Shown one piece after another: positions 10,767 to 32,595 of a stretch of DNA of 52,027 nucleotides; the stretch's first letter is position 1; every line of letters begins with the position of its first letter. A model generated the notes under the pieces. It was not told the DNA's origin. It was given only the letters and a program-made list of their open reading frames with translations, and made no database searches. Position numbers and translations under genes: made by a program. The stretch comes from Patescibacteria group bacterium (GTDB taxonomy: Bacteria; Patescibacteriota; Gracilibacteria; UBA1369): the NCBI GenBank assembly GCA_963169815.1, contig CAUJDC010000025.1, positions 1-52,027 on the forward strand. The letters are read 5' to 3'.

Positions 10767-10772
10767 TTAATT

Positions 10773-11183: not shown

Positions 11184-11186
11184 AAA

Positions 11187-13237: not shown

Positions 13238-14041
13238 ATGAAAAAGCTTTTATCGATACTCGGTGGTTTGTTACTAGTAGTGGCTGCGATTGTGGGAATA
13301 GTATTTTCTCTCACTGCGGGTGTGACTGGAGGAGCAGATGATTTCTTTAAGCTGGTTAAGTCTGGTGATTACAAGGCTGCTTATCAGTCTACTTCCAAGG
13401 AATTCCAAAAAGCGACTTCAGAGGAGCAGTTTAATGATTTCTTGAATCAGACTACCATGGTCAAGTTTGACCATGCGGAATGGACTTCACGTTCAGTGCA
13501 AAATAATCTTGGTAATGTGGAAGGAACTGTAGTGACTACTGATAAAGCTGTGGTGCCAGTTACTATGGATTTGGTAAATGAAGATGGTAAATGGAAAGTT
13601 TTGAATTTACGACCAGTAGTTGGCGGCTTACAGCCTGAAAATTCTGCTATCAAAGATTCCAAAACTGCGGCTAAGCCAGATTTACCAAGTGATGATGAAG
13701 TAAATGCTTTGGTAACTGCTTCAATCAATGACTTCGTTGAGGCGGTTAAGGCCAAAGATTTTAATACTTTCTATGGCAATGTTTCTGAAGTATGGAAGAC
13801 TCAAACTAATGTAGCTGAACTAGAAAAGGCTTTTGAACAGTTAATGGATGAAAAAATAGATCTTGGTTTTGTGAAAACTACTAAGCCTGTACTTAATGCT
13901 AAACCAGAACTTGATCAGGATAATATTCTGGTTGTAGATGGTATGTATCCTTCTAAAGATGCTAATTTCATGTTCCATATGGGCTATGTTTATGAACATC
14001 CAAAATGGAAACTGATTGGAATTACGGTAAACTTCAAATAA
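13238..14041 (+). CDS. Hypothetical exported or membrane-anchored protein with two similar domains
   Basis: It has an N-terminal hydrophobic anchor. Two repeats share a pattern (FFKLVKSGDYKAAY... and FVEAVKAKDFNTFY...). No confident family assignment. Confidence 0.6.
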   Translation: MKKLLSILGGLLLVVAAIVGIVFSLTAGVTGGADDFFKLVKSGDYKAAYQSTSKEFQKATSEEQFNDFLNQTTMVKFDHAEWTSRSVQNNLGNVEGTVVTTDKAVVPVTMDLVNEDGKWKVLNLRPVVGGLQPENSAIKDSKTAAKPDLPSDDEVNALVTASINDFVEAVKAKDFNTFYGNVSEVWKTQTNVAELEKAFEQLMDEKIDLGFVKTTKPVLNAKPELDQDNILVVDGMYPSKDANFMFHMGYVYEHPKWKLIGITVNFK

Positions 14042-14042
14042 T

Positions 14043-14714
14043 TTAAAAGCTCCAATTAATTGGTTTAATCAGATGTTGGAGGAGGAAGTCATTGGTTTTA
14101 CTAAATGGTTTGCTGCCGAAAAATCCGTTGTAAGCAGAAAGTGGAGACGGATGAGCAGAGGTGATCACAAAATGTTTGTGGAGATCAATGACTTTCCCTT
14201 TTTCCTGGGCATAATTTCCCCAGAGTATGAAGACGACATTTTCTTTTTGATTAGAAATAGTTTTGATCACGGCATCAGTGAATTGCTCCCAGCCTTTTTT
14301 TTGATGTGAGCCAGCTTGATTGGCGCGCACGGTTAACGTTGCATTGAGTAGCAGGACGCCTTGTTTACTCCAATTTTCTAATTCGCCAGTTTGAGGTGCT
14401 GGGGTGCCGAGGTCTGAAGCGAGTTCTTTGTAGATATTTCGGAGAGAGGGAGGTAATTGCACACCATTATTTACGGAAAAACAGAGGCCATTGGCCTGAC
14501 CGGGGCCGTGATAATGGTCTTGTCCAATAATCACCACTTTAACCTGGTTGAAGGGACAGAGCTCGAAAGCGCGGAAAATGTTTTTACCAAGTGGGTAAAT
14601 AGTTTGGCTGGAATATTCAGCTTTGACGAATTTGATCAATTTTCGAAAGTATTCCCGACCAAACTCTTGATCCAATACTTTTCGCCAGGATGTATCGATT
14701 TTTACTTGAGACAT
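14043..14714 (-). CDS. ung: Uracil-DNA glycosylase, family 1
   Basis: Motifs GQDHYHGPGQANGLCFSV (water-activating loop) and SAHPSPLSA. Confidence 0.93.
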   Translation of the reverse strand: MSQVKIDTSWRKVLDQEFGREYFRKLIKFVKAEYSSQTIYPLGKNIFRAFELCPFNQVKVVIIGQDHYHGPGQANGLCFSVNNGVQLPPSLRNIYKELASDLGTPAPQTGELENWSKQGVLLLNATLTVRANQAGSHQKKGWEQFTDAVIKTISNQKENVVFILWGNYAQEKGKVIDLHKHFVITSAHPSPLSAYNGFFGSKPFSKTNDFLLQHLIKPINWSF

Positions 14715-14843
14715 AAGGCAGTAATAATTTGTTTGATAATAACAGACTGGAGAATTATGATAAATCTAAAGATGGTTCTGTGAATGTTCTGTTTTTGCCA
14801 ACTTTTGTGTTTGGAATGGAAGTTCCTAAAACTAATTATCTGT

Positions 14844-14892
14844 TTGACTTTTGTTTGTTTGAGGGGTAGATAGTGTGTATACAACACTATCT
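14844..14892 (+). promoter_or_regulatory. Promoter-like TTGACT-17-TAGATA overlapped by a perfect 9-bp inverted repeat; candidate NrtR operator
   Basis: TTGACT at 14844-14849 and TAGATA at 14867-14872. AGATAGTGT (14868-14876) and ACACTATCT (14884-14892) are separated by GTATACA. The site lies immediately upstream of the pnuC ATG at 14900. Confidence 0.45.
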
Positions 14893-14899
14893 GCTTTTT

Positions 14900-15577
14900 A
14901 TGAATTTCATCCCACAATTTTTCGATATCAATTTGATCTTCTTTACAGTCTTCGATTATCCGATGAGTTATATCGAATTCTTTGGGACGATTTTAACAAT
15001 CTGGTGTGTTTGGCTGACTAGTAAGGCGAAAATTCTTTCCTGGCCAGTGGGTATAGCTGGTTCATTGCTTTATCTGTTTCTTTTCTATCAGATTCAACTT
15101 TATTCTGATTTGATGGAGCAGATTTACTTCATCGTTACTAGTGTGATTGGTTGGTATATGTGGATGCGTTATAAGAAAGAACAAGAAGCAGATCATGCTA
15201 CTGTGATTCCTGCAGTTAATTCTATCAAAGAAAATCTGATTTGGATTGGTGTGATCGTGCTTGGTACTGCTGTGCTAACCTATTTCACTATGAATTTTAA
15301 TAATTGGTGGCCTCAGTTTTTCCCAGAACCAGTTTCTTATCCGATGTTGGACGCTTTGACTACGGTGATGAGTTTTGTGGCACAGTTCTTATTGATGAGA
15401 AAGAGAGTAGAAAGCTGGATTTTGTGGATTATTGTGGATGCGATTGGCATTGGTTTGTACTGGGTGAAAGGAGTAAAATTCTTATCGCTCGAATACTTGC
15501 TATTCTTCTTTATCGCCAGCTACGGTTTGTATAATTGGTTAAAAATTTACAGAAAACATCATGTTAAAAAATCATAA
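14900..15577 (+). CDS. pnuC: Nicotinamide riboside transporter PnuC
   Basis: PnuC-like polytopic protein (WLTSKAKILSWPVGIAGSLLY..., W-rich helices). The track ORF starts at GTG 14873 inside the palindrome, so ATG 14900 is preferred. Confidence 0.85.
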   Translation: MNFIPQFFDINLIFFTVFDYPMSYIEFFGTILTIWCVWLTSKAKILSWPVGIAGSLLYLFLFYQIQLYSDLMEQIYFIVTSVIGWYMWMRYKKEQEADHATVIPAVNSIKENLIWIGVIVLGTAVLTYFTMNFNNWWPQFFPEPVSYPMLDALTTVMSFVAQFLLMRKRVESWILWIIVDAIGIGLYWVKGVKFLSLEYLLFFFIASYGLYNWLKIYRKHHVKKS

Positions 15578-16550
15578 ATCAAATTACGGTAGAGGACTCG
15601 TGATTGGTAAGTTTTACCCTCCTCATCTCGGCCATAAGTATTTGATTGATGCGGCCAGTTCAAAGTGTGAAAAGCTCACTGTAATTATTTGTTGGAAACA
15701 ATCTGAAACAATTCCAGTGACGGCTAGAGCTCAATGGATCAAGAGACTGCATCCCAATGTCGATGTGAAAGTAATTGAGGACAATAAACTGGACGATGAT
15801 GATTCTGAAGGCTGGGCCAAATTTACTCTGGATATTCTGGGCTATAAACCTGACGCGGTATTTACCTCAGAGTCATATGGGGATCCCTATGCTAGTTTTA
15901 TGGGAGCAATTCATGTGATGGTAGATAGAGACAGAGTGGATGTGCCAATTTCTGCCACTAAAGTGCGCAGTAATCCGATGAAATATTCAGAACTCGTCAG
16001 TCCGGCTGTGAATGGCTACTTTGCCAGAAGAGTTTGTATAGTTGGCGCCGAGTCTACTGGAACAACAACTTTGGCTAGGAGTTTGGCGACGCATTATAAA
16101 ACTGTTTGGGTGCCAGAATATGGTCGAACTTATTCTGAAGGGAAATGGACTTCAGCCAAGAATGCTGTTTGGAAAACTGAAGAGTTTGAGCATATTGCCA
16201 GAACCCAAAACAGTATGGAAAATGCTTTGGCGGAAATTTCCAATGGTTTGTTGATTTGTGATACTAATGCTTTTGCTACTGCCCTTTGGCATGAAAGATA
16301 TATGGGTTTCAGATCTCCGCAATTGGAGGAATTGGGCAAGCATTGTTCAGCTGATCTATATATCTTAACTGGTGATGAAATTCCGTTTGTTCAAGATGGC
16401 CTGAGAGATGGTGAACATATTCGTCATCAAATGCATCAACGCTTTATGCAGAGACTGGAAGAGGACAATAAGCCATATATCATTGTTACTGGAAATCCAG
16501 AGCAGCGACTGAAGGATAGTATTAAATCTATTGATCAGTTATTTAGTTAA
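15561..16550 (+). CDS. nadR: NadR-type bifunctional NMN adenylyltransferase / ribosylnicotinamide kinase
   Basis: GKFYPPHLGHKYLID nucleotidyltransferase motif. A second domain carries the P-loop GAESTGTTT. It overlaps the pnuC end by 17 nt. Confidence 0.88.
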   Translation: MLKNHKSNYGRGLVIGKFYPPHLGHKYLIDAASSKCEKLTVIICWKQSETIPVTARAQWIKRLHPNVDVKVIEDNKLDDDDSEGWAKFTLDILGYKPDAVFTSESYGDPYASFMGAIHVMVDRDRVDVPISATKVRSNPMKYSELVSPAVNGYFARRVCIVGAESTGTTTLARSLATHYKTVWVPEYGRTYSEGKWTSAKNAVWKTEEFEHIARTQNSMENALAEISNGLLICDTNAFATALWHERYMGFRSPQLEELGKHCSADLYILTGDEIPFVQDGLRDGEHIRHQMHQRFMQRLEEDNKPYIIVTGNPEQRLKDSIKSIDQLFS

Positions 16551-18673: not shown

Positions 18674-18904
18674 ATGTTTGAGGATAAACCAGACATTCTC
18701 TCCATTGGAGAGGTCGCAGAAATACTGAATGTTTCGACCATGACACTTCGACGTTGGGATAAAGAGGGTATTTTGAAAGCGTTTCGGCCAAGTATGACCA
18801 AACAGCGACGGTATCATAAAAAAGATGTCATCGATTTTTTGAAATCTACGCCTGAAACACATAAGAAGCCCAAATCTCGAAGAAAATTAACACCTTTTCC
18901 ATGA
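18674..18904 (+). CDS. Excisionase/MerR-type HTH protein (76 aa)
   Basis: LSIGEVAEILNVSTMTLRRWDKEGIL resembles the excisionase-family HTH. Its stop overlaps the hsdM start (ATGA). Confidence 0.7.
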   Translation: MFEDKPDILSIGEVAEILNVSTMTLRRWDKEGILKAFRPSMTKQRRYHKKDVIDFLKSTPETHKKPKSRRKLTPFP

Positions 18905-20943
18905 ACAATTTTCAAAATAAAGTTAGCTTAATCTGGAATATCGCTGAGTTTTTGCGCGGTAGCTGGAAGCAACATGAATATCAGGATGTTGTGCTTCCTT
19001 TAACGGTTCTCAAGCGCCTTGATTCGGTTTTGGAGAAAACCAAAGAGAAAGTTTTGAAGGAATACAATCAGCATCAGGGGAAAATCAACGTGTCTCCGAT
19101 TTTGAAGGACATTACGGGTGTTGGGTTTTACAACACATCGGTTTATGACTTTCACAAACTATTGGATGATCAGAAAGATATTTCCAAAAACCTACGCAAC
19201 TACATCAGTGGTTTTTCCGAAAATGTTCAACAAATTATTGAGAAATTTGATTTTGAAAAGCATCTTGCACGTCTTGAAGGAGGTAATCTCCTGTACCTCA
19301 TTGTTAAGGAGTTAAATAAAGTTGATCTTCATCCTGATGCGGTTAGTAATACGGAGATGGGGTACATCTTTGAAGAGTTGATTCGTAGATTCTCTGAGCA
19401 ATCCAATGAGACAGCTGGTGAGCACTACACCCCGCGCGAGGTGATTCAAATGATGGTGGAGGTGATGTTTACGATGGATAAACATTTACTCAAAAAGGAG
19501 CACACAATTAAGACGATTTACGACCCTTGTTGCGGTACGGGCGGAATGCTTGCGGTTTCAAAGAAATTCATTGCTGAGCATATCAATTCCAAAGCGGATA
19601 TTTACCTGTATGGACAAGAGCTGAATCCCGTGACGTACGCCATGTGCAAGGCGGACATGCTGATTAAAGGTGAGGATGCTGACAAAATTAAAGGTGGTGA
19701 AAAAGATCACTCCAAGGCAAGTACGCTTTCTAACGACCAATTTATCGACCAACATTTTGACTACTGTATAACGAATCCGCCGTTTGGTGTGGATTGGAGA
19801 AAAGATCAAGAAGCTGTCGAGCGTGAGGCGCAGCGTGGGCACGCGGGCAGGTTTGGTGCGGGAACTCCGCGAAGTTCTGATGGGCAGTTGCTCTTTTTGC
19901 AGCACATGATTTCCAAAATGCAGAATCCTTTGAGTGGTGGAGGACGTATTGCCATCGTTTTCAACGGGTCACCTCTTTTTACAGGTGATGCTGGGAGTGG
20001 TGAAAGTGAAATCCGTCGCTGGATTTTGGAGAATGACTGGCTTGAAGCGATTGTTGCTCTGACTGATCAGCTTTTTTATAACACGGGCATTTCAACCTAC
20101 GTCTGGTTTTTAACTAACCGTAAGAAGCATGAGCGGAAAGGAAAAGTGCAGCTCATTGATGCCCGCACATTTTTCAAGAAAATGAGAAAGAGTCTCGGGA
20201 ATAAGCGCAATGAAATAACCGATGAAGATCGTGGGCACATTGTGAAGCTTTATGAGGAGTTTAAAAACTCAAAGTATAGCAAGATTTTCAAAACGACGGA
20301 TTTTGCATTCAGGCAGATTACGGTTGAACGACCGTTAAGGCTTAATTTTCACGTAAGTGCGGAAAGAATTGAGCGGGTGAAAGAACAGTCTACATTTAAG
20401 GGTTTAGCTGAAAGTAAAAAGAAAGGTGACGCTGGGATTTTGGAGATTGAGGAGGGGAAAGCGTTTCAAAAAGAGGTCTTATCTGTGCTGGAAAAGCTGG
20501 ATAGCAAGCTGTATCGAAACCGTGAGGCATTTCTTGAGGCTTTTGACGAAGCTTTCAAAAAGTCTGGCATAAAACTGCCTGTTTCACTTAAAAAAGGAAT
20601 TTTGGAAGGTTTGAGCGAACGTGACGAGGAAGCCGATATTTGCTTGGATAGTAAAGGCAATCCCGAACCAGATAGTGAACTGCGCGATACCGAAAATGTG
20701 CCTTATGAACAGGATATTTATGAGTATTTTGCAAAAGAAGTGAAGCCTTACGCGCCTGACGCGTGGATTGATGAAAAGAAAGTGGACGATAAGGACGGTA
20801 AAGTCGGACGTGTTGGCTATGAAATTCCCGTTACTCGTTATTTTTACGAATATCAACCGCCTCGCGCGCTTGAAGAGATTGAGGCGGATATTGAAAAGGT
20901 TGAGAATGAACTTCTTGGCTTGTTTAAGGAATTAACCAAATAA
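18901..20943 (+). CDS. hsdM: Type I restriction-modification methyltransferase subunit HsdM
   Basis: HsdM N-terminal domain (IWNIAEFLRGSWKQHEYQDVVLPL), SAM motif DPCCGTGGML and catalytic NPPFG. Confidence 0.95.
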   Translation: MNNFQNKVSLIWNIAEFLRGSWKQHEYQDVVLPLTVLKRLDSVLEKTKEKVLKEYNQHQGKINVSPILKDITGVGFYNTSVYDFHKLLDDQKDISKNLRNYISGFSENVQQIIEKFDFEKHLARLEGGNLLYLIVKELNKVDLHPDAVSNTEMGYIFEELIRRFSEQSNETAGEHYTPREVIQMMVEVMFTMDKHLLKKEHTIKTIYDPCCGTGGMLAVSKKFIAEHINSKADIYLYGQELNPVTYAMCKADMLIKGEDADKIKGGEKDHSKASTLSNDQFIDQHFDYCITNPPFGVDWRKDQEAVEREAQRGHAGRFGAGTPRSSDGQLLFLQHMISKMQNPLSGGGRIAIVFNGSPLFTGDAGSGESEIRRWILENDWLEAIVALTDQLFYNTGISTYVWFLTNRKKHERKGKVQLIDARTFFKKMRKSLGNKRNEITDEDRGHIVKLYEEFKNSKYSKIFKTTDFAFRQITVERPLRLNFHVSAERIERVKEQSTFKGLAESKKKGDAGILEIEEGKAFQKEVLSVLEKLDSKLYRNREAFLEAFDEAFKKSGIKLPVSLKKGILEGLSERDEEADICLDSKGNPEPDSELRDTENVPYEQDIYEYFAKEVKPYAPDAWIDEKKVDDKDGKVGRVGYEIPVTRYFYEYQPPRALEEIEADIEKVENELLGLFKELTK

Positions 20944-20946
20944 CCC

Positions 20947-21129
20947 ATGAAAATTCGCAAACTTTCGCCATCGGCCTACGTCCTGCGCAAGCAATGGGAA
21001 CTTGAGGACAAAAAAGTCTTTGCCAAATTCAGGAAAGACGAAGCGGTTTTGCAGGTGATTAATGCTTTGGCGGAGATGATTGTGCGAATGCAGGTGCGAC
21101 AACCAGAGGAACCAAAAGTGCAATTTTAG
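20947..21129 (+). CDS. Small hypothetical protein (60 aa) between hsdM and hsdS
   Basis: It fills the hsdM-hsdS gap on the same strand. No motif was recognised. Confidence 0.35.
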   Translation: MKIRKLSPSAYVLRKQWELEDKKVFAKFRKDEAVLQVINALAEMIVRMQVRQPEEPKVQF

Positions 21130-21163
21130 CCATAATGTTACGGAATTCAGTAAGAATAAAATA

Positions 21164-22459
21164 ATGCAGATTCAACTCAAGAAACATCACGGGCGGTACA
21201 GCAAATACAAGCAAACGGGAATACCGTGGCTTGGTGAGGTGCCTGAAGAATGGGAAGTGAAGAAGTTAAATCTAGCTTATGCTTTTGAAAAGGGTCAAAA
21301 TGCGCAAGTATTTACGGCTGAATATATCTCTGACGAAAATAACATTGGAGAGTACCCCGTTTATAGCGGTCAAACTGAAAATGATGGAGTAATGGGGATG
21401 ATAAATGCTTATATTTATGACAGGGAGTTTTCAATTTTTGTCACAACAGTTGGAGGAAAAGTAATGACGCCAATGTTTATTAAGGGAAAGTTTAGTCTAT
21501 CTCAAAATTGCGCCTTATTTAGGGCGAGAAATAAGAAGAAGATCTGTGATAAATATTTTTTTTATCAGCTATTTCCTCTTTTTGAAATGGAAAAAGCAAA
21601 TATTCCATCTCATATGCAACCTTCTTTAAGAATTTCTGATTTGAATAGATATATTGTTGCCTTTCCACATATTGTTGAGCAAAAAAATATTGCTCAGTAC
21701 CTCGATTTAAAAATTGATTTGGTTGATCAACTTATTGCAAGTAAGCAAAATCAAATTAATCTTTTGCAGAACAAACGCACCAGTTTGATATATCGAGCTG
21801 TAACTCTTGGGATTGATGAGCGTGTGGGAATGAAAGAAAGTGGTGTGGAATGGATTGGGAAAATTCCAATGCACTGGCAATTAATGCCTTTGTTTACGAT
21901 CGCCAAAGAACAGCAGAATAAGAATATTGGCAATAAGATCGACAATGTCCTTTCATTGAGTTATGGCAAAATAATCCGTCGAGATGTAGAAAACAATTTC
22001 GGATTATTACCTGAATCGTTTGAAACATATCAAATAGTTGATTCTGGAAACATCATTCTTCGTTTAACAGATCTTCAAAATGACAAAAGAAGTCTGAGGG
22101 TTGGCCTAGTAAAGGAGCGTGGAATTATAACTTCAGCCTATGTGTGTTTGTCAGTAAAAAAACAAATGCTGTCTGATTATTTATATGTTTTACTACATTC
22201 GTATGATTTGGAAAAAGTGTTTTATAATTTGGGTGCTGGAGTTCGTCAAACAATGAAATTTTCTGATCTAAAGCGGTTGCCAATTCCTTTACCTCCGATC
22301 CAAGAGCAGCAAAGGATAGTTGATTTCCTCAATTCTGAAACTCGGAAAATTGATAGGGCTGTAGCTATTATCAAGCAGTCAATTTCTTTCCTTGAGGAAT
22401 ATAAGACTTCTCTTATTTCCCATGTGGTAACTGGAAAAATTAAAGTAACTAACTCTTAA
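21164..22459 (+). CDS. hsdS: Type I R-M specificity subunit HsdS
   Basis: It has two target-recognition domains, each followed by a conserved helical spacer (EQKNIAQYLD... and EQQRIVDFLN...). ATG 21164 is preferred over the track start at 21080. Confidence 0.9.
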   Translation: MQIQLKKHHGRYSKYKQTGIPWLGEVPEEWEVKKLNLAYAFEKGQNAQVFTAEYISDENNIGEYPVYSGQTENDGVMGMINAYIYDREFSIFVTTVGGKVMTPMFIKGKFSLSQNCALFRARNKKKICDKYFFYQLFPLFEMEKANIPSHMQPSLRISDLNRYIVAFPHIVEQKNIAQYLDLKIDLVDQLIASKQNQINLLQNKRTSLIYRAVTLGIDERVGMKESGVEWIGKIPMHWQLMPLFTIAKEQQNKNIGNKIDNVLSLSYGKIIRRDVENNFGLLPESFETYQIVDSGNIILRLTDLQNDKRSLRVGLVKERGIITSAYVCLSVKKQMLSDYLYVLLHSYDLEKVFYNLGAGVRQTMKFSDLKRLPIPLPPIQEQQRIVDFLNSETRKIDRAVAIIKQSISFLEEYKTSLISHVVTGKIKVTNS

Positions 22460-22462
22460 GCC

Positions 22463-23287
22463 ATGAAATTTCAATATTTCACATACTTTTTGAACCCGAT
22501 ATCTCAGCAGTCTCTGTTCCCTGACCAGAGGGATAAAAATGATATTTTAATGGGAATCATGGAGAAAAAGATGGAATATAAACATATGAAATCTGACATG
22601 GTTTATGTGTTTCACAGAAAGGAGTGGAAATATTTACACGGAAAGCTTGGTAAAAAATCATCTATCAAAAGAACTCTTCCTTCTGATCATGATTTTGTTG
22701 AGCATGTCGATATAAATTACCCATATTGCAATTTATTATTGAATTTGGACAATGATGCGGAAACTGGCCAAAAAATTGCTTTTGAGTATAACTCTGTTGT
22801 TTTTCAGTCGCCAGAGGCTCAAATTAAAGCACTAGAAAAACAATTAAATACTCTTTTGTTTTCAAATGGTTATGCCATCTCAATTCATCCAGTAGTTGAT
22901 CAAAAAGAATTTTGGGCATTGGCAAAGAAATATGATGGAAAAATTGAAAAACTGATTTTTACTTATGCTGTTCCTAATCTTTTTAATCTTGAGAACGAGC
23001 TTTCAGAGGATTTGAAGCAGTCTGGTCAAAAGTATGGGATTACAAATGCTGCTATTGAATTTGAGAATAAAGCAGGTCAATTAATAATCCCTGAAAATGA
23101 CCCTTTCATGAAACAAAGTGCGGAATATACTGGAAAAGGTGGTGGCGAATATAGGCTTAAGGTTAAAGGGATGAAATCAGAGATTAGTAGCAATAAGAAC
23201 GTAAAAACTAAGTCCATTGAAGATATTGACTTGAGTACTGATGATAAGGAAACCTTTCTAGAGGCAGTTAATACAATTTTTAAGTAA
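22463..23287 (+). CDS. Uncharacterised 274-aa soluble protein embedded in the Type I R-M operon
   Basis: It starts 4 nt after hsdS on the same strand. I could not identify any catalytic motif. Confidence 0.7.
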   Translation: MKFQYFTYFLNPISQQSLFPDQRDKNDILMGIMEKKMEYKHMKSDMVYVFHRKEWKYLHGKLGKKSSIKRTLPSDHDFVEHVDINYPYCNLLLNLDNDAETGQKIAFEYNSVVFQSPEAQIKALEKQLNTLLFSNGYAISIHPVVDQKEFWALAKKYDGKIEKLIFTYAVPNLFNLENELSEDLKQSGQKYGITNAAIEFENKAGQLIIPENDPFMKQSAEYTGKGGGEYRLKVKGMKSEISSNKNVKTKSIEDIDLSTDDKETFLEAVNTIFK

Positions 23288-23293
23288 AAAAAC

Positions 23294-23722
23294 ATGAAAC
23301 TACTTGGAATTATTTTTTTCAACATCATACTCGGCGCGGGATTTATTCTGCTGAACCAATTAGTTGGCAACTGTTTTTTGAAGAATTTTTTAGACAACCA
23401 GATATTGCCTATCGGCTCAACAATTTTAGGGTTTAACCTTGCTGGTATTATATTTCTAATAGGGCATATAACTGAAATTGAAAGCAAGACGAATGCAGAT
23501 TTTTCGGCTTCTAAAAGAGAACTAAAACATAATATTTATTTTTTAGGATTGGTTTTTGTTGCAATCCTACTTCTCTTATTTGTAAATCCAACACCCACTC
23601 AATACAAATATGTAGATTTTGGTTTTAACGCTCTCATAATGACTTTGTTTTTCATGCAGTTTTACGCGGTATATGAAATTCTCAATGCGGTTTTTCATTT
23701 AAAAACAACTAAAAAATCTTAA
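23294..23722 (+). CDS. Uncharacterised small membrane protein (142 aa, ~4 TM helices)
   Basis: It has four hydrophobic segments and starts 7 nt after the preceding ORF. Confidence 0.65.
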   Translation: MKLLGIIFFNIILGAGFILLNQLVGNCFLKNFLDNQILPIGSTILGFNLAGIIFLIGHITEIESKTNADFSASKRELKHNIYFLGLVFVAILLLLFVNPTPTQYKYVDFGFNALIMTLFFMQFYAVYEILNAVFHLKTTKKS

Positions 23723-23734
23723 CTTTTTATAACC

Positions 23735-24820
23735 ATGCAACCATTTAAACCCCACAAATTGCCGATAAAAAATCTCGACTGGACTCGATTTATTCACCTT
23801 ATTGGTGAGTCAAATCGGGAGGTTGCACGTTTTGATGGTCTTTTGCAGAGCATGCAGAATCCTGGGGTGTTGCTTTCACCATTGACCACACAGGAAGCCG
23901 TGCTTTCATCGAAAATTGAGGGTACGCAGGTGACTTTGCAGGAAGTGTTGGAGTTTGAGGCAGATCCAACCGAACATGCAGAGAAACATGATGACATTGA
24001 GGAGGTTTTGAATTACCGAAAGGCAATGCACTATGCTGTGGAAAATCTGGATAAAGTGTCGTTTTCTGGAAGGCTGATTAAAGGCGTTCACTCAATTTTG
24101 CTTGATGGTGTGAGAGGAGAAAATAAAGATCGTGGAAATTTTAGAAGCGGACAAGTGCACATCGGGAAATCAAAGAAGATTGAAGAGGCAAGCTATGTTC
24201 CTCCTGCACCTCATGATATCGCTGATGCGTTCTCGAATCTTGAGAAGTATTGCCACGAAACCGAAAAAGACGATCTTGTTCAATTGGCCATTATTCACGC
24301 CCAGTTTGAGATTATTCACCCGTTTTGGGATGGAAATGGTCGTGTTGGACGTATCATTCTGCCACTTTTTCTTTATTTCAAGAAAGTGCTAACAAGTCCG
24401 ATGTTTTACCTAAGTGCCTATTTTGAAAAAAATAGGGATGAATATTATCAGTATTTGAAAGGGGTTTCCGAGAAAAATGATTGGGAATCATGGATTGAAT
24501 ATTTCTTACAGGCGGTTGTGACTCAGGCGAAAGAGAATGTTATCAAGGCTAAGGCGATTCATAGCCTTTATGACCAGAAAAAGAATCGAATAGTTGGTTT
24601 GACTCATTCACAGTTCGCAATCAAAACTTTAGATTTTCTTTTTTCTTATCCGATTTTTACATCCGCGCAATTTGTAAAGCTAACAGGAATTCCGCAAGGA
24701 ACTGCTCTTCGTTTATTGAGTAAGTTGAAACAAGGGGAGGTAATTACCGAGATGCGCACAAAAAAAGGACGTTCGGCTATGATTTATCTGTTTCCAAAGC
24801 TTTTGAAAATAACTGGTTAA
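23735..24820 (+). CDS. Fic family protein (Fic_N + Fic + C-terminal winged helix)
   Basis: Fic motif HPFWDGNGRVGR, N-terminal inhibitory-helix-like SSKIEG, and a C-terminal HTH-like region. Confidence 0.92.
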   Translation: MQPFKPHKLPIKNLDWTRFIHLIGESNREVARFDGLLQSMQNPGVLLSPLTTQEAVLSSKIEGTQVTLQEVLEFEADPTEHAEKHDDIEEVLNYRKAMHYAVENLDKVSFSGRLIKGVHSILLDGVRGENKDRGNFRSGQVHIGKSKKIEEASYVPPAPHDIADAFSNLEKYCHETEKDDLVQLAIIHAQFEIIHPFWDGNGRVGRIILPLFLYFKKVLTSPMFYLSAYFEKNRDEYYQYLKGVSEKNDWESWIEYFLQAVVTQAKENVIKAKAIHSLYDQKKNRIVGLTHSQFAIKTLDFLFSYPIFTSAQFVKLTGIPQGTALRLLSKLKQGEVITEMRTKKGRSAMIYLFPKLLKITG

Positions 24821-25022
24821 TTCTTAACTGTCACGAATGACACATAAAATCTTTTATCTCTCGCAATTGTAAAAACATGAGAGATAAAGTAAGTTAACTC
24901 TCACATATGAAACTTAAGTTAGTTTGTAGCTCATAAAATCGAAAATATGAGCGATAAAAAGAATTATAGCTCATCTGTTAGCTACAACGTTGTAACAATA
25001 ACTTCTAAACTTTAACGAAAAT

Positions 25023-27956
25023 ATGCCAACCAATACCCGTGAAATCGGCTTTGAAGCCTACATTGAAACCTTTCTCATCGATCAAAACGGCTATGAAAAG
25101 CGCAAGCCTGAAAACTACGATAAGGCCTTATGTGTCGATCGTGAGGTGACTTTGCGGTTTATCAAAGAGACTCAGCCGAAGGAATGGGATCTTTTGGCAG
25201 AACATCATGGTAGTTTTGCGGAAGAAAAGTTTTTTAAGCGGCTGAATGAGGAAGTTAAGGCGCGTGGACTGCTTGATGTTCTGCGTACTGGCATTAAAGA
25301 CAACGGTTCATCTTTTTCTTTGGCTTACTTCAGGCCTGTAACGAGCATTAATGAAGAAACGCGTAAACTTTATGAAGGAAATATTTTTAGCGTGATGCGT
25401 CAGGTGAAGTACAGTGCACGAAATGAAAATTCGATTGATATGGTGATTTTTTTGAATGGTTTGCCGATATTTACCATTGAACTCAAGAATCAGCTGACTG
25501 GCCAGTCTGTGACGAACGCTTTGAGGCAATACAAGACTGATCGCGATCCAAACGAGCCTTTGTTGCAATTTAAACGGGCTTTGACGCACTTTGCTGTGGA
25601 TACCGACGAAGTGTACATGACGACTAAGCTTGAAGGGCTTAAAACCTTTTTCTTGCCCTTCAACAAAGGCAATGAAATGTCCGCAGGTAATCCGCCAGCC
25701 AAGAACAAATACAAGACAGAGTACGTGTGGGAAGATATTTGGACAAAAGACACGGTGCTTGAGATAGTTAGCCGCTTTTTGTGCCTGCAAAAAGAGGAAA
25801 AGGTTGATGCAAACGGCAAAAAGAGGATTGAAGAAAAATTGATTTTCCCGCGTTATCACCAGCTTGATGCCGTGCGCAGACTTATTACGAACTCACGAGA
25901 AGTGGGGGCGGGAAAAAACTATCTCATTCAACATAGTGCAGGAAGCGGAAAGAGCAATACGATTGCGTGGGTTGCGCACCGTCTGGCTGATTTGCACGAT
26001 GAAACGGATAAAAAAGTTTTTGATTCCGTGATTATCATCACTGATCGTCGCGTGCTTGATAAACAGCTCCAGAATACGGTTGCACAATTTGAGCAAGTAC
26101 GAGGCGTGGTAAAGAAGATTGATAAGCACAGTTCTCAGCTTCGTGAAGCCTTAGAAAATGGGGAGAAAATTATTATCACCACTTTGCAGAAATTCCCCGT
26201 GATTGTGGAGGATATGGAAAAATTATCGGGGAAGAATTTTGCGGTCATCATCGATGAGGCGCATTCTTCTCAAACTGGTGAAAGTGCAAAGACACTTAAA
26301 CAGGTTTTGACTTTTGATGAACAGGAAAGAGATTACGAGGATGGTGAAGAATTTATTTTGAAAGAAATGAAATCGCGTGGCAGACAAAAGAACGTGAGCT
26401 TTTTGGCATTTACGGCAACACCAAAGCAAAAGACGCTGGAAATGTTCGGAGAAAAACAGTTTGATGGAACGTTTAGACCGTTCTCGATTTATTCGATGAA
26501 ACAGGCTATTGATGAAGGCTTTATTCTGGATGTTCTCAAGAATTACACCACTTACCAGATGTATTTTAACCTGCTCAAAAAAGTGCAGGACGATCCTGAT
26601 TATAAGAAAAAGAAGGCGCAGAGACTGATGGTGGATTTTGTTGGAAAACATGAAGTGGCGATCCAAAAGAAAATCGAAATTATTGTGACTCATTTTTGGG
26701 AAAATATTGCTCGTGAAATAGGCGGTAAAGCTAAGGCAATGATTGTAACCCGTTCACGTTTGCACGCTGTACGTTTCAAGCTGGAGATGGATGCCTATCT
26801 TGCGAAAAACAATTTACCAATGAAGTCATTGGTGGCCTTTTCTGGAACGGTTGATGATGGCGATTTGGAATACACCGAATCTCAAATGAATGGTGTTTCG
26901 GAAAATCAAACAGCGGACACTTTCAAGGAGGATGATTACAAGTTTTTGATTGTGGCGGAAAAATTCCAGACTGGCTTTGATGAGCCGCTTTTGACCGCTA
27001 TGTATGTGGATAAAAAGCTTTCTGGGGTGAATTGCGTGCAGACGCTTTCGCGCTTGAATCGTACAAGGCCTGACAAAGAGGAAACCTTTGTGCTAGATTT
27101 TGTGAATAATACGGACGACATTAAAGAGTCCTTCCAGCCTTATTACACGACAACGGTGCTTGCTGAGGCGACTGATCCAAATATCCTGCATGATTTGCAG
27201 CGCGATATTTTGAACTATAAGCTTTTTGATGAACGAGAGATTGGCGAGTTTTGCAAAATGTATTTCCGTGGAGTTTCTCCAAGTGAGCTGAATGGATTTT
27301 TGGATGTAATTAAGCCTCGTTTTCTGGAACTTGATAAAGAACAACAAACGGACTGCAGGAAGAAAATGAGCGAATATCTCAAGAAATACGCCTTTATTTC
27401 ACAGATCATTTCGTTTAGCGATAGTAGTCTTGAAAAGCTTTATGTTTTCTTACGGCTTTATCGCAGAAAATTGCCGATAACAACGGAGACATTGCCATTT
27501 GAGGTGCTTGACTCAGTCGATTTGGAATCAATCAAAATACCGCAGGTCGGGCAAACCAGTATCACGCTTGAAAATGAAGATGGTGCACTTGAACCGATTG
27601 CAGGACGTGGCCGAGGGAAAAATGAGGATGAGAATGAGGTGTTGTCGAAGATTATCAAGGAGGTTAACGAGCGCTTTGGGACGACTTTTAGTGAAGAAGA
27701 TCGAATCATATTGAACAATCTTACCAAACGCCTGCTCGACCACAATGCGCTTGCAGGAGCGGTTAAAAACAATAATTCGCAAGATGCAGTGAAGGTGAAA
27801 TTTGATGAGGTGTTTGAAAAAGAGCTCATCTCAATGTTCCGCAATAATTTTGACCTGTACCAGAAGTTAGATTCAAATGCTGACTTGAAAGACTACGTCA
27901 ACCGAAAGATGTTTGATTTTATTCAAAAGAAATTGAAGAAGGATGGCGGAAAATAG
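25023..27956 (+). CDS. hsdR: Type I restriction endonuclease subunit HsdR
   Basis: N-terminal nuclease domain (IDMVIFLNGLPIFTIELK), helicase motif I HSAGSGKS, DEAH box IIDEAHSS, and motif VI QTLSRLNR. Confidence 0.95.
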   Translation: MPTNTREIGFEAYIETFLIDQNGYEKRKPENYDKALCVDREVTLRFIKETQPKEWDLLAEHHGSFAEEKFFKRLNEEVKARGLLDVLRTGIKDNGSSFSLAYFRPVTSINEETRKLYEGNIFSVMRQVKYSARNENSIDMVIFLNGLPIFTIELKNQLTGQSVTNALRQYKTDRDPNEPLLQFKRALTHFAVDTDEVYMTTKLEGLKTFFLPFNKGNEMSAGNPPAKNKYKTEYVWEDIWTKDTVLEIVSRFLCLQKEEKVDANGKKRIEEKLIFPRYHQLDAVRRLITNSREVGAGKNYLIQHSAGSGKSNTIAWVAHRLADLHDETDKKVFDSVIIITDRRVLDKQLQNTVAQFEQVRGVVKKIDKHSSQLREALENGEKIIITTLQKFPVIVEDMEKLSGKNFAVIIDEAHSSQTGESAKTLKQVLTFDEQERDYEDGEEFILKEMKSRGRQKNVSFLAFTATPKQKTLEMFGEKQFDGTFRPFSIYSMKQAIDEGFILDVLKNYTTYQMYFNLLKKVQDDPDYKKKKAQRLMVDFVGKHEVAIQKKIEIIVTHFWENIAREIGGKAKAMIVTRSRLHAVRFKLEMDAYLAKNNLPMKSLVAFSGTVDDGDLEYTESQMNGVSENQTADTFKEDDYKFLIVAEKFQTGFDEPLLTAMYVDKKLSGVNCVQTLSRLNRTRPDKEETFVLDFVNNTDDIKESFQPYYTTTVLAEATDPNILHDLQRDILNYKLFDEREIGEFCKMYFRGVSPSELNGFLDVIKPRFLELDKEQQTDCRKKMSEYLKKYAFISQIISFSDSSLEKLYVFLRLYRRKLPITTETLPFEVLDSVDLESIKIPQVGQTSITLENEDGALEPIAGRGRGKNEDENEVLSKIIKEVNERFGTTFSEEDRIILNNLTKRLLDHNALAGAVKNNNSQDAVKVKFDEVFEKELISMFRNNFDLYQKLDSNADLKDYVNRKMFDFIQKKLKKDGGK

Positions 27957-27979
27957 TAGTTTGAATAACAAACCAAGTT

Positions 27980-29644
27980 ATGAAAATTAAGAAAATTAGA
28001 ATTGCTGGATATCGTTCTATTAAGGAAACAATCGAACTTGAACTTGGGGATGTGAATGCTCTTATTGGCGCAAACAATGTGGGAAAAACGAATATTCTTA
28101 ATGCCATTTGGTCAGTTCTTGGTAAAGACTGGGTAACAGTGAATTCTTTTGATGAAAGTGATGTCTTTAAAAATGAATTTGATCAAGATATTGATATCGA
28201 AGTTGAATTTGAAGAACCATACAAATATGAATCTTATAAGGGGGCAGAGCCTGTTGATGTCCCACAAATAAATTTTAGATATACGCGATATAAAGTTGGT
28301 GAATTTGAAGGTCAAAGGAGATTGGAGAAAAGATGCTTGAATGCTAGTGGGCAGCCAGTGCAAGTCTTGTCGAAGAAACCACAAAAAGGAGAAAAAAGGC
28401 AGTATCAACCTTTGATTTCAATACCGCAGCAGATTCAAGAATCAATTCCAGTAATTTATATTGGGGCAAATAGAGAGTTGAAATACCAATTACCTGAGTC
28501 CAAGAATTCACTACTTGGCTCCCTACTTGCTGATGTAAATAAAGATTTTCAGGATCCTGAAAATAAAATGAAAGTTACTAATAAGCAGGGAGAAGAGGTT
28601 GAGGTTTCTCGGGTGGAAAGATTTAATCAATGTATTAAAGCTGCAATTGAGGCTTTGAAAACAGAAGATTTTTTGGCTCTAGAAAAGACAATTCGTGATA
28701 ATGCATTGTTGCAGCTTGGTATTGATCCTGAGCATTCTGGTTTGAATGTTTTCTTTCAGCCATTAACCTCTTTGGATTTTTATAAGTCGCTGAATATTTT
28801 TGTTGAAGAGAATGGATTTAGCTTGAATGCTACTTCATTAGGAGGAGGGTTTCAGAACGCTTTGGTTATTGCAATTTTGAAAGCTTTTGAGGAAAGGAAA
28901 AAATCAGGTGCAGTTTTTCTCATCGAGGAACCAGAGATGTTTTTGCATCCTCAAATGCAGCGATCTTTGTATAAAACTATACGTAAAATTGGGAAAACTA
29001 ATCAGGTTATTTATACAACGCATTCTCCTCATTTCGTAACAATTCCAGAATATGATGAAATAGTTTTGGTGAGTAAAAATGAAAATGGTACAAAAAGACG
29101 AAAGAGCTCTCTTCCAAAGACAACAGAACTTGAGCAAAAGCTTAGGAAGGAGCTTGATCCAGAAAGAAGCGAGTTTTTCTTCGCTAAAAGAGTCCTTTTT
29201 GTAGAAGGAGATACCGAAAAATTGGCATTGCCTGAATACGCCATCAGAGAGGCGTTGGATTTTGACGGGGTTGGTGGAACAATTGTAGAGGTTGGAGGGA
29301 AAAGGAATCTCCAGATGATGGCTGACATTGCACTTTCTTTCGACATATCTACTGGAATTATTTTCGATACAGATTCGTCTGATTTTAGTGACAAAACAGA
29401 AGAGAAAGAATTCAATGAATTACTGGATGGATATTCTAAAAAGGGTGCAAAAGTTTGGAAATTTGAGAAAAATTATGAAGAAGAATTGAAAAAAGCTCTT
29501 ACAGACAACGTTTATCAGACTGCTTGTCAGAAGTATCCAAAAACATCAAAGGCTATAAAAGCCAGATTGATCGCGCAAGATACAACCTATTCTGTTCCAG
29601 ATTTTATTAAGCCAATTATTAAATGGCTTGCAAATAAAGAATAA
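27980..29644 (+). CDS. OLD-family ATP-dependent nuclease (ABC-type ATPase + Toprim), standalone
   Basis: N-terminus IKKIRIAGYRSI...LIGANNVGKTN (Walker A), Walker B FLIEEPEMFLHP, and THSPHF. Toprim motifs are LFVEGDTEKLALP and IIFDTDS. No partner helicase follows. Confidence 0.85.
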   Translation: MKIKKIRIAGYRSIKETIELELGDVNALIGANNVGKTNILNAIWSVLGKDWVTVNSFDESDVFKNEFDQDIDIEVEFEEPYKYESYKGAEPVDVPQINFRYTRYKVGEFEGQRRLEKRCLNASGQPVQVLSKKPQKGEKRQYQPLISIPQQIQESIPVIYIGANRELKYQLPESKNSLLGSLLADVNKDFQDPENKMKVTNKQGEEVEVSRVERFNQCIKAAIEALKTEDFLALEKTIRDNALLQLGIDPEHSGLNVFFQPLTSLDFYKSLNIFVEENGFSLNATSLGGGFQNALVIAILKAFEERKKSGAVFLIEEPEMFLHPQMQRSLYKTIRKIGKTNQVIYTTHSPHFVTIPEYDEIVLVSKNENGTKRRKSSLPKTTELEQKLRKELDPERSEFFFAKRVLFVEGDTEKLALPEYAIREALDFDGVGGTIVEVGGKRNLQMMADIALSFDISTGIIFDTDSSDFSDKTEEKEFNELLDGYSKKGAKVWKFEKNYEEELKKALTDNVYQTACQKYPKTSKAIKARLIAQDTTYSVPDFIKPIIKWLANKE

Positions 29645-30738: not shown

Positions 30739-32595
30739 ATGCAAAGAACAGTTCTATATTGTCGCAAGTCTTCGGACAGCGATGACAGACAGGTACAATC
30801 CCTTGATGATCAGGAAACTGAGCTGAAGGATTTTGTGAAGAGGGCTAATGGATTTGCACAAAACAGCAATGAGAGGATGGAGATTGTGGAGATTATCAAA
30901 GAAAGCTGCTCGGCCAAAAACTCGGGTGAAAGGCCGCTTTTTAACCGAATGGTAGAGGACGCGCAAAGGGGAAAGTATGATGTGATTTTGATCTGGTCTC
31001 CTGATCTTATTTCGAGGAATTTGGGTGATATGGATAAGATTATCAGGCTTTTGGAAAGCCATAAGATCAAACATCTTCTAACTCAATCAAACCAAACTTA
31101 CGGCAATCGTGCTATTGAAAAGGGCATGCTGCAGTACTGTGTTGTGAATGCCAAGATGGAAAATGACCAGAAAGGTGAGAACGTGGTGCGTGGATTGAAA
31201 CGAAAAATCCGTGATGGTAACTGGATCGGCAATGCCCGACTTGGTTATCTGAATTTTGGAAATAAAAAAGGCCAGCGTTGGGTCGATAAAGACCCTGAGC
31301 GATGGGAAATTATCAAGCAATGTTGGGAAATGTTTGCGACTGGAGCCTATTCTGTCCCTCGAATCAGGGATAAAGCCGAAGAGATGGGACTTCGATCACG
31401 CCCAATGCGAAACAAGCCTGAAGGCGCTCGTGTGGGCATAAACACCTACTACGACATGTTCTGGAATGTTTTTTATCTGGGCAAAATGCTGGTTGGTAGA
31501 AAGGAAGATGTGAAGCTATTGCCAGAATTAAAGACGATGATACTCAATGGGGAAATTGAAGGTGAGATTTTTGAAGACTACGTTATTGTGAAAGGCAAAC
31601 ACCCGCCGATGATTTCAGAAGAGTTGTTTCGCCGTGTGCAGGTAATTCTCAAAGAGCGTGGCCTTGCCCATCATTGCACTAAAACACATTTTAAGGACTT
31701 TGTTTTTGCTGGATTGATTTTGTGTGGATCGTGCGGTCATGCTGTTGTGACGGAAGAAAAGACCAAATACAAGTGCACTGACTGTGGCACTTGGTTTACC
31801 TGCTCATCCGCTCGACCAACTCCTACCGATTGTAAAAAGTGCAAGAAGCGTTTGAGTAGGCAGGCGCTGGAAAACAGCTCTTACTACTGCTATGCCCACT
31901 GTTCGGGCAAGAACAAGGAAAAGAAATTTTGTCCGCAGACCTTTCACCCTAATGGAAGACCTAAACCAACTATTCCTGTAGTTGAGTTGGAAAGGCAGGT
32001 TGATGACATGCTGAACCGACTTTCGATGGATGAAGAGGTTTACGCCTATTGCATCAGCACTCTAAAAGACGAACATTTTCAGAATAAGATCGTTCAAAAT
32101 CAATCTTTGACGCTTTTGCAGAAAGATCACAAGCGAATCAAGGAAAAACTCGATAAGCTGGTGGATTTGAGGCTTGCTGGAGAGATTGATGCCGAGTATT
32201 TCGCAAATAAGAAGTCTGAGCTGGAAACGAACATCAAGGAGATCATGCAGCAACTTGAGAAGTTTAATCAGAAAAATACCGATTGGGTCGAACAGACGGA
32301 AACCTTCTTGAATATGGCTTCCAGAGCCAGTTTAGCGTTCAAGAACGGAGATAATCTGACAAAACGGGAAATCTTGAAAAGCATTAGCTCGCACATATAT
32401 TTGCAGGGCGGTAAACTCCGCTTTGAATTTCGCAAACCATTCGACATCTTACTCAAAGAACCGCCAACACAAGACTTAGACGCTGTGTCGAAAAATCAGG
32501 AGTTCGAACCAAACGGACATCAGGAAAAAGCCAAAATATCTGCTTTTGGCTCTCGTTTTTCTGAATGGCTCCCTCGACTGGGCTCGAACCAGTGA
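30739..32595 (+). CDS. Large serine recombinase (resolvase catalytic domain + recombinase domain + zinc ribbon + coiled coil)
   Basis: VLYCRKSSDSDDRQVQSLDDQ (catalytic Ser region), a Cys-rich CGSCGH...CTDCG...CKKCKK segment, and a coiled-coil tail. The last 30 nt overlap the tRNA-Asn 3' exon, and the stop is TGA. Confidence 0.92.
   Translation: MQRTVLYCRKSSDSDDRQVQSLDDQETELKDFVKRANGFAQNSNERMEIVEIIKESCSAKNSGERPLFNRMVEDAQRGKYDVILIWSPDLISRNLGDMDKIIRLLESHKIKHLLTQSNQTYGNRAIEKGMLQYCVVNAKMENDQKGENVVRGLKRKIRDGNWIGNARLGYLNFGNKKGQRWVDKDPERWEIIKQCWEMFATGAYSVPRIRDKAEEMGLRSRPMRNKPEGARVGINTYYDMFWNVFYLGKMLVGRKEDVKLLPELKTMILNGEIEGEIFEDYVIVKGKHPPMISEELFRRVQVILKERGLAHHCTKTHFKDFVFAGLILCGSCGHAVVTEEKTKYKCTDCGTWFTCSSARPTPTDCKKCKKRLSRQALENSSYYCYAHCSGKNKEKKFCPQTFHPNGRPKPTIPVVELERQVDDMLNRLSMDEEVYAYCISTLKDEHFQNKIVQNQSLTLLQKDHKRIKEKLDKLVDLRLAGEIDAEYFANKKSELETNIKEIMQQLEKFNQKNTDWVEQTETFLNMASRASLAFKNGDNLTKREILKSISSHIYLQGGKLRFEFRKPFDILLKEPPTQDLDAVSKNQEFEPNGHQEKAKISAFGSRFSEWLPRLGSNQ
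32525..32561. terminator. Bidirectional hairpin inside the recombinase 3' end, directly downstream of tRNA-Asn on the minus strand
   Basis: AGCCAAAA (32529-32536) pairs with TTTTGGCT (32544-32551). T runs follow the stem on both strands. Confidence 0.55.
32564..32572. repeat. Right copy of putative att core AATGGCTCC (overlaps the tRNA-Asn CCA end)
   Basis: It is identical to 18407-18415. Confidence 0.5.

Follow-up and report, generated by a model that had tools for sequence, protein, structure and literature searches.

A stretch of 52,027 nucleotides (nt) from contig CAUJDC010000025.1 of a Patescibacteria group bacterium, called the window below, carries a Type I restriction-modification (R-M) operon that is split by three genes. 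hsdM and hsdS (18901-22459) are parted from hsdR (25023-27956) by three genes of the same direction. They encode a protein of 274 amino acids (aa), called A in what follows, a protein of 142 aa, called B, and a Fic protein. This arrangement had been noticed in an earlier sequence-only reading of the DNA, and the map of open reading frames (ORFs) bears it out, together with the gaps of 3, 6 and 12 nt that separate hsdS, A, B and Fic. The region is best explained as a mobile Type I R-M island that has taken up two separate defence units, the A-B pair and Fic, as cargo between its hsdS and hsdR genes. A-B is an autonomous, conserved and co-evolving two-gene cassette. Judged from its sequences, the best-fitting reading of the pair is that of a soluble sensor combined with a small membrane effector of abortive infection, as had been proposed. 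We further consider that the pair is of the Rex type and probably remotely homologous to the Rex proteins, with a probability of about 0.55 estimated from the sequences and the structural models.

A and B are found together across genomes

We compared about 26 distinct loci (designated by L-numbers), whose hosts extend from Candidate Phyla Radiation (CPR) bacteria to E. coli and include Alphaproteobacteria. Wherever the available sequence reaches far enough beyond A, the next gene encodes a membrane protein of 137-168 aa with four helices. The two genes therefore co-occur across genomes. The pairing is kept in the distant Alphaproteobacteria Ruegeria and Nisaea. It is also recovered in the reverse direction: starting from distant B proteins of Bradyrhizobium and Pseudorhizobium, the upstream genes match the A hidden Markov model (HMM) at 6e-29 and 8e-27. 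The A/B junctions are mostly ATGA or 1-nt overlaps, and the B gene is probably translationally coupled to A. Over 26 loci, the pairwise identities of A and those of B are correlated with r = 0.89, a value reached by 0 of 2000 Mantel permutations.

Sequence families and predicted structures

Protein A had been described as an orphan. This label was mistaken. A word-indexed search identified 46 clusters at 36-67% identity, all of about 275 aa, and an exhaustive profile search delineated a superfamily of 1175 cluster representatives, 925 of which score at E <= 1e-10. What does stand is that neither A nor B can be matched to a named family, as no Pfam, PADLOC, NCBIfam or PHROG model corresponds to them. 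The same is true of the A superfamily, none of whose representatives bears a name or an assignment in Pfam, PHROG, PADLOC or NCBIfam. A yielded zero matches at E <= 1 to the PADLOC v2 models, which include KwaA and KwaB of Kiwa. Comparison of 10 distant members of the superfamily with the profile library gave nothing usable, and a profile search of PDB sequences with A found nothing. One very long protein (P0158, 5647 aa), with 22 matches to positions 214-251 of the A profile, was rejected as a spurious repeat match; a repeated beta-hairpin (Y_Y_Y-like) motif, and not true homology, is probably the cause.

The AlphaFold2 model of A is of good confidence, with a predicted local distance difference test score (pLDDT) of 89.7 and a predicted template-modelling score (pTM) of 0.85. 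An antiparallel beta-sheet domain spans residues 1-108, four alpha-beta units make up residues 117-234, and a terminal helix follows. The positions conserved throughout the superfamily are Q103, F150-W151, P171-N172, L207 and G226/G228. A carries in addition a conserved basic cluster (K61/K64/K65/K69/R70). QYFxYFLN, GQ, FW, PN and GGG are strong signature motifs of the A-B cassette. No toxin, nuclease or ATPase motif is recognisable in A. Search for structural similarities using Foldseek returned no PDB match at E <= 0.001. The same search against BFVD retrieved five uncharacterised proteins from phages or prophages, A0A8S5PCY0 among them, which are close to A in length; the best has an E-value of 1.3e-15 and a template-modelling (TM) score of 0.73.

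Protein B had been read as a protein with four transmembrane segments (here TM1 to TM4). In the window, B has three strong hydrophobic segments and a weaker fourth one, and nearly all full-length homologues have four, in line with that description. Its AlphaFold2 model is a bundle of four long helices (pLDDT 89.1). The B family comprises 119 clusters, all standalone and unnamed. Foldseek comparison of B with the PDB gave generic helical bundles only, and 84 B members searched against Pfam gave noise from generic membrane families only. With the PADLOC models, the single match of B, to DruH at 0.02, is noise. The most conserved soluble motif of B, TxKEIKHN, is located in the loop between TM2 and TM3. 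The distribution of charges predicts that this loop and both termini are cytoplasmic.

Comparison with Rex systems

The A-B pair resembles RexAB of phage lambda in several respects. The gene for the soluble protein comes first and that for the membrane protein second, and the sizes are nearly the same (274 and 142 aa for A and B, 279 and 144 aa for RexA and RexB). The partner has four transmembrane segments with a charged central loop, is of about 145 aa and lies directly downstream of A in every locus with room. As with RexAB, carriage is by prophages or islands. In contrast to RexAB, A-B is not linked to a cI-type repressor, and it is found in CPR bacteria, in Alphaproteobacteria and inside R-M operons.

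The predicted fold of A points, weakly, in the same direction. RexA has a globular domain built on a 7-stranded sheet; its dimerisation domain, which comes next, contains four strands and four helices, and the last element is a C-terminal helix (PMC11077077). The inventory of secondary structure in the model of A agrees with this published description. The two top matches of A in the Foldseek search of the PDB are CENP-L and Iml3. IML3/CHL4 belong to the RexA/RdgC fold class, with a split into an N-half and a C-half at residue ~114 (PMC11077077).

For B, alignment by hhalign with a 4-sequence RexB profile gave a faint signal, with a score of 24.0 over 64 columns and TM2, the loop and TM3 in register. 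All the controls stay below this score: reversed sequences reach about 16, block-shuffled ones 12.8 +/- 2.4 with a maximum of 18.9, and unrelated transmembrane segments about 14.

A third, likewise weak, line of evidence comes from DUF4747. A resemblance of A to this family had been tentatively raised in the sequence-only reading. Because the family was named before the scan, the hypothesis was fixed in advance. The resemblance is borne out to some extent: 1 of 125 superfamily members matches PF15931 at an E-value of 3e-4, the best in the table. A of the window itself gives no match. DUF4747 is a published weak-HHpred feature that links RexA, Sbash gp30, CarolAnn gp44 and Butters gp30, each of which has a partner with four transmembrane segments (PMC6426596, PMC6426606, PMC7542560). 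The E-value reported for Butters gp30 with DUF4747 is 140 (PMC7542560). The immune operons reported to follow closely on R-M operons include those of the "DUF4747/CarolAnn" type (PMC13373217). In P. putida, the Rex-type system RexABpp has a membrane partner without detectable similarity to RexB (PMC12894663).

The Rex-like systems of actinophages (Sbash gp30/31, CarolAnn gp44/43, Butters gp30/31) are similarly made of a cytoplasmic protein and a directly downstream, often overlapping, partner with four transmembrane segments, and the gene layout in CarolAnn and Sbash is the same as that of A-B. Their soluble component shows a weak DUF4747 or RexA signal only. Like B, the membrane partners of the actinophage systems and of RexABpp have no usable sequence similarity to lambda RexB (PMC12894663). 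A-B also shares with "DUF4747/CarolAnn" its carriage by prophages and defence islands and its proximity to R-M genes (PMC13373217). On the other hand, the actinophage sensors are about 100 aa longer than A (356-372 aa), and the signature motifs QYFxYFLN, GQ, FW, PN and GGG of the A-B cassette are not reported for the actinophage proteins. A soluble DUF4747-type protein together with a partner having four transmembrane segments is a published Rex-like signature (PMC6426596, PMC6426606, PMC7542560), and A-B is probably not the undescribed system for which it had been named a candidate. It is probably a remote variant of the known Rex-like, or DUF4747-CarolAnn, kind.

Several results weigh against the Rex-type reading. 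At the level of sequence, A is near-neutral (isoelectric point, pI, 6.3) compared with the basic RexA (pI 8.6). The Pfam RexA family PF15969 is matched neither by A (E <= 1) nor among the matches listed for the 125 superfamily members (E <= 10); as a positive control, lambda RexA matches PF15969 at 1e-97. The PADLOC models give A-B no Rex match, and RexB (PF15968) is not among the top recurrent Pfam matches of the 84 B members. The hhalign values are low: 0.2-0.3% for A with RexA (single sequence or 4-sequence profile), 1.4-3.2% for A with the actinophage RexA-like proteins (CarolAnn/Sbash/Sejanus profiles), 0.2% for B with the actinophage RexB-like proteins, and a probability of only 12.8% for the alignment of B with RexB described above. 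The DUF4747 match concerns a single member and lies below any curated threshold. At the level of structure, the CENP-L and Iml3 matches are weak (E 0.02 and 0.07; TM score ~0.2), and neither the RexA structure 8TWQ nor RdgC is among the best 50 Foldseek matches of A. As for distribution, some contexts do not look like defence loci, namely rpsI/A-B/grpE in CPR bacteria and chromosomal sites of Ruegeria, Nisaea, Bradyrhizobium and Pseudorhizobium. Finally, A of the window has no relative in the IMG/VR scan or, by tblastn, in the phage and plasmid collections.

The negative sequence comparisons have to be read alongside those obtained with established Rex-like proteins. CarolAnn gp44, Sbash gp30 and Sejanus gp46 give no Pfam match with hmmscan, and the same shallow-profile hhalign yields 0.2% for the actinophage sensors with lambda RexA. 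Apart from the faint B-RexB signal, the hhalign comparisons with lambda RexA and RexB, as single sequences and as 4-sequence profiles, and with the actinophage profiles were all non-significant. Widening the Rex profiles from the phage collection added near-identical lambdoid copies only. Since shallow profiles fail on the actinophage-lambda pair, the hhalign negatives obtained for A do not count against homology.

A-B could instead be a defence or abortive-infection pair that follows the same soluble-sensor and membrane-effector logic while being unrelated to Rex. A would then be a new fold and the likeness convergent. Such an origin would suit the lack of a PDB match for A at E <= 0.001, the lack of a Pfam, PADLOC, PHROG or NCBIfam model for A or B, and the non-significant hhalign comparisons with RexA, RexB and the actinophage proteins; the same pairing and the same defence contexts serve it as well. 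However, the best Pfam match among the 125 members is precisely DUF4747, which had been named beforehand, the two top fold matches belong to the RexA/RdgC/IML3 class (PMC11077077), and the B-RexB score exceeds that of all the controls. Moreover, Pfam and shallow-profile hhalign also miss the validated Rex-like proteins of actinophages, so that the negatives for A-B carry little weight. We consider an origin unrelated to Rex unlikely. A-B is most likely a very remote branch of the Rex-like superfamily, and not a mere analogue.

Genomic contexts and distribution

The recurrence of A-B within or beside R-M systems and defence islands, which the sequence-only reading had put forward as a check, is observed in about half of the contexts compared (a raw share). 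R-M genes adjoin the pair in about 12 contexts. In the window, in L001 and in L054, the pair is found within a Type I operon, after hsdS and before hsdR. In four CPR lineages (L003, L006, L011 and L019), it directly follows genes for an SNF2 helicase and a Type IIG-like methyltransferase, with gaps of 3-10 nt. IIG-like methyltransferases are also found beside A-B in L013 and L014.

The module upstream of A-B in the four CPR lineages is composed of an SNF2-family helicase of ~1100 aa and a Type IIG-like methyltransferase of ~1060-1120 aa (L003 1510-7991; L006 1519-7997; L011 1423-7994; L019 3359-9971). The best PADLOC matches of the helicase are DrmD, BrxH and HKD+Snf2. The module is reminiscent of a Type ISP-like or DISARM-like R-M system that has been split.

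Other defence genes are found close to the pair. L038 (21-8183) is a dense defence island with hsdM-hsdS-hsdR, a DRT UG13b reverse transcriptase (PADLOC 6.9e-128) and a Cas4-like PD-(D/E)XK nuclease, after which the start of an A homologue is visible at the contig end. In L034, A-B is beside a non-specific endonuclease, a HEPN/DUF4145 protein and a Type ISP enzyme. It neighbours a GmrSD-like enzyme in L017, a GajB-like helicase in L016 and PIF1 helicases in L018 and L024. Directly downstream of A-B in L011 (9719-11370) is the candidate defence pair HEC-01A (AAA_15 ATPase, 9.7e-159) and HEC-01B (DUF4276, 2.9e-55). Serine recombinases are next to A-B in L013, L015 and the window.

Comparison of the Type I operons shows what is constant in them. 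In the Patescibacteria locus L001 (8667-10186), three small genes, for proteins of 218, 140 and 145 aa without a Pfam match, stand where the window has Fic. The gap between hsdS and hsdR behaves as a variable cargo bay, of which A-B is the constant element. The Desulfamplus locus L054 (JADGBL010000004.1) is syntenic with the window. It has the same series of genes, encoding a helix-turn-helix (HTH) protein, hsdM, a 60-aa ORF (orf60), hsdS, A, B, Fic and hsdR, most of them at 68-83% aa identity, and a relaxase gene abuts hsdR. In this locus (10692-15821), B is interrupted by an IS4-family insertion sequence (IS) element and Fic by one of the IS66 family, and A, hsdM, hsdS and hsdR are intact. 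Such a pattern would be anticipated if the cost and the toxicity lay with B and Fic; coming from one locus, it is a hint.

The location inside R-M operons raises the possibility that A-B is a guardian similar to PrrC, which would monitor the Type I (or helicase-methylase) enzyme and fire in response to a phage anti-restriction protein. The three islands with A-B between hsdS and hsdR, the four CPR lineages with A-B right after the SNF2 helicase and the IIG-like methyltransferase, and the PrrC precedent (PMC12707154) are in favour of such a function. As in the case of PrrC, an abortive-infection-type gene is found between the hsd genes of a Type I locus (PMC12707154). But PrrC is one protein, an ABC-ATPase-like anticodon nuclease whose guarding of EcoPrrI is physical, whereas A-B has no nuclease or ATPase motif and is equally frequent without any R-M system. 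At least 8 contexts have no nearby R-M gene, including the E. coli prophage, Ruegeria, Nisaea, Bradyrhizobium, Pseudorhizobium and the CPR rpsI-grpE site. It follows that A-B has to be capable of acting on its own. Where R-M systems do accompany the pair, they also differ in type (Type I, ISP, IIG-like), which speaks against a guard acting by specific protein-protein contact. A function as R-M guardian thus appears improbable, and an autonomous Rex-type pair that is often lodged in R-M operons remains our preferred reading.

In E. coli (L053 4584-5919; CP099174.1 873070-874405), an A-family protein of 298 aa (3e-41) is encoded together with an overlapping 154-aa partner with four transmembrane segments. 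The integrase gene of an e14-like prophage flanks the pair on one side and icd on the other, and the genes for A and B alike bear the annotation "hypothetical protein". Of 5426 complete E. coli genomes, 32 (0.6%) carry the pair. A scan of 185,579 species representatives, limited by the search pattern, returned 4 A-B loci.

This distribution bears on whether the pair could be a non-defence, membrane-associated module of housekeeping or stress response that hitch-hikes in islands. The adjacency to ribosomal-protein and chaperone genes in CPR bacteria, the ordinary chromosomal neighbourhoods in Alphaproteobacteria and the lack of a recognisable toxin or nuclease motif in A would fit such a role. 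Against it stand the very patchy spread just described, in E. coli genomes as well as in the pattern-limited scan, the positions as prophage cargo and in islands, the enrichment of the neighbourhoods in defence genes, and the disruption of B by an IS element in L054. We find a housekeeping role highly improbable, and retain the probable assignment of A-B to defence.

Fic as a separate unit

The identification of the third gene as Fic is confirmed. Its translation contains the active site HPFWDGNGRVGR and the N-terminal inhibitory helix SSKIEG, and Pfam recognises Fic_N and Fic. The protein aligns from end to end with the PADLOC SoFic model (2.9e-116; residues 2-359 on model positions 7-357 of 361). 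With the NCBIfam SoFic equivalog it scores 170 bits, for a cut-off of 550. As this is under the equivalog cut-off, the protein is to be considered a member of the SoFic family and not an orthologue.

SoFic is a self-contained toxic AMPylase giving abortive infection (PMC12249575). Proteins of this type act alone, in some cases with a small downstream antitoxin, AS1 (PMC12249575). Fic of the window shares with SoFic the HPFxxGNGR active site and the N-terminal SxxxEG inhibitory helix. It differs in that no AS1-like 47-aa antitoxin ORF was found in the 202-nt gap between Fic and hsdR (PMC12249575).

In the sequence-only reading, A, B and Fic had been joined into one three-gene module. One could imagine a system in which A senses, B anchors or gates, and Fic is the toxin. 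The near-zero gaps (3, 6 and 12 nt), the A-B-Fic order kept between hsdS and hsdR of L054 at 68-83% identity, and the presence of a Fic/RhuM gene 7 kb upstream of A-B in L003 are compatible with it. However, Fic is beside A-B only in the window and in the syntenic Desulfamplus L054, and is absent from this position in about 24 other contexts, including the closely related L001. The window and L054 share one island lineage and therefore count as a single observation. In addition, Fic is a full-length protein of the SoFic type, known to work alone (PMC12249575). A three-gene system is hardly probable at all, and the proposed module does not hold. To judge by its sequence, Fic is an independent, already known single-gene defence toxin that is not part of the A-B module.

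Layout of the island

The features of the island are listed in Table 1. The Type I R-M set is complete, with hsdM, hsdS and hsdR intact and in the same orientation in the ORF map and by Pfam. The proposal that the cassette sits on a mobile island is borne out by the serine recombinase gene (30739-32595) and by housekeeping genes on both flanks. These are YaaA and NrtR on the left, and SSB, guanylate kinase and tRNA-Gln (36657) on the right. The recombinase gene, found at the island's right end, is likely to be responsible for its mobility. The OLD nuclease reported next to the cassette is indeed there, as indicated by PADLOC (Old/GajA) and by the Pfam OLD TOPRIM domain. According to the ORF map, the gap between Fic and hsdR is 202 nt and that between hsdR and the OLD gene 23 nt.

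Table 1 Features of the Type I R-M island in the window
Feature	Position	Strand	Evidence
MerR/HTH_17 (excisionase-like) protein, 76 aa	18674..18904	+	Pfam HTH_17 7.7e-11, MerR 2.6e-10
hsdM, Type I R-M methyltransferase, 680 aa	18901..20943	+	Pfam N6_Mtase 5.1e-68, HsdM_N 1.1e-22
60-aa ORF between hsdM and hsdS, no Pfam match	20947..21129	+	Gene call on identical contig
hsdS, Type I specificity subunit, 431 aa	21164..22459	+	Pfam Methylase_S 6.7e-24, two stretches
A, soluble two-domain component of the A-B pair, 274 aa	22463..23287	+	ORF map; AlphaFold2 model
B, four-helix membrane protein, 142 aa	23294..23722	+	ORF map; AlphaFold2 model
Fic, SoFic-type class II AMPylase, 361 aa	23735..24820	+	PADLOC SoFic 2.9e-116; Pfam Fic_N 3.7e-27, Fic 6.7e-18
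Perfect 10-bp inverted repeat TTTATCTCTC / GAGAGATAAA, 16-nt spacer	24853..24888		In the 202-nt Fic-hsdR gap
hsdR, Type I restriction subunit, 977 aa	25023..27956	+	Pfam HSDR_N, ResIII, SWI2_SNF2, T1R_D3-like
OLD-family ATPase/TOPRIM nuclease, 554 aa	27980..29644	+	PADLOC Old 2.3e-48, GajA 4.7e-48; Pfam AAA_15, OLD-like_TOPRIM
Large serine recombinase, 618 aa	30739..32595	+	Pfam Resolvase 1.4e-18, Recombinase 4.3e-9

The MerR/HTH_17 gene marks the left end of the island operon. It overlaps the start of hsdM by 4 nt, and its product, 81% identical to the copy in the Desulfamplus island L054, could be the island excisionase or a controller protein of the R-M operon. The 60-aa ORF that follows hsdM is 47% identical to the 60-aa ORF of the L001 hsd operon (4584-4766) and 53% identical to its counterpart in L054 (~7914-8060). 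This hsd lineage may have in it a small component or regulator that has escaped recognition. For hsdS, the likely start is ATG 21164, from the gene call on identical contigs, and the mechanical ORF begins at TTG 21080.

No terminator-like site was found from hsdM to Fic on the + strand, in promoter and terminator scans that gave results no better than shuffles. Co-transcription of hsdM to Fic fits this terminator scan, which is of no statistical weight. The inverted repeat at 24853-24888 has an RNA folding energy of -12.5 kcal/mol and is not followed by a T-run. If hsdR has a promoter of its own, the repeat could serve it as an operator or as a regulatory RNA hairpin.

No Shine-Dalgarno sequence is recognisable before the seven genes from hsdM to OLD (18876-27982), whose leaders are A/T-rich. 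This suggests that the host lineage does not rely on Shine-Dalgarno-led initiation.

Discussion

The comparison with Rex systems suggests how the pair may work. A would be a cytoplasmic sensor, probably a dimer, binding nucleic acid or a phage protein made during infection, possibly through the basic cluster K61/K64/K65/K69/R70. Once activated, A would engage the cytoplasmic TM2-TM3 loop of B, which carries the TxKEIKHN motif. B, taken to be an inner-membrane protein, may then oligomerise into a channel or a membrane lesion, and the resulting collapse of the membrane potential would abort the infection. When embedded in an R-M operon, A-B would be co-expressed with the restriction enzyme and provide a second line of defence. 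In the island of the window, the SoFic-type protein would add a third, independent layer and the OLD nuclease a fourth.

We also consider, tentatively, a broader and less conservative possibility. A-B could represent an unrecognised abortive-infection family that spans phyla, has more than 1000 clusters and possesses a sensor fold without a solved relative. In its R-M-embedded forms, bypass or inhibition of the co-transcribed restriction enzyme would set off a membrane-lesion effector, and the pair would thereby be a second-line guard. The Rex-like logic would then be either independent or so diverged that a new family is warranted. Our preferred view nevertheless keeps A-B within the Rex type.

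To our knowledge, the mechanism of RexAB is still unresolved after 70 years. If A-B is of the Rex type, the RexAB paradigm would extend to a large unannotated family of 1175 cluster representatives for which Pfam, PADLOC and NCBIfam have no model, and which is spread over CPR bacteria, Desulfobacterota, Alphaproteobacteria and Gammaproteobacteria. The A-B cassette escapes current defence-annotation tools entirely. Its proteins are small and confidently modelled, and they include a copy in an E. coli prophage, which makes the system tractable for study. That IS elements have disrupted only the two putative toxic effectors, B and Fic, in the sister island fits a cost of carriage. More generally, A-B would be a clear added case of R-M operons (Type I, ISP, SNF2 with IIG-like) serving as landing pads that gather second-line abortive-infection cargo.

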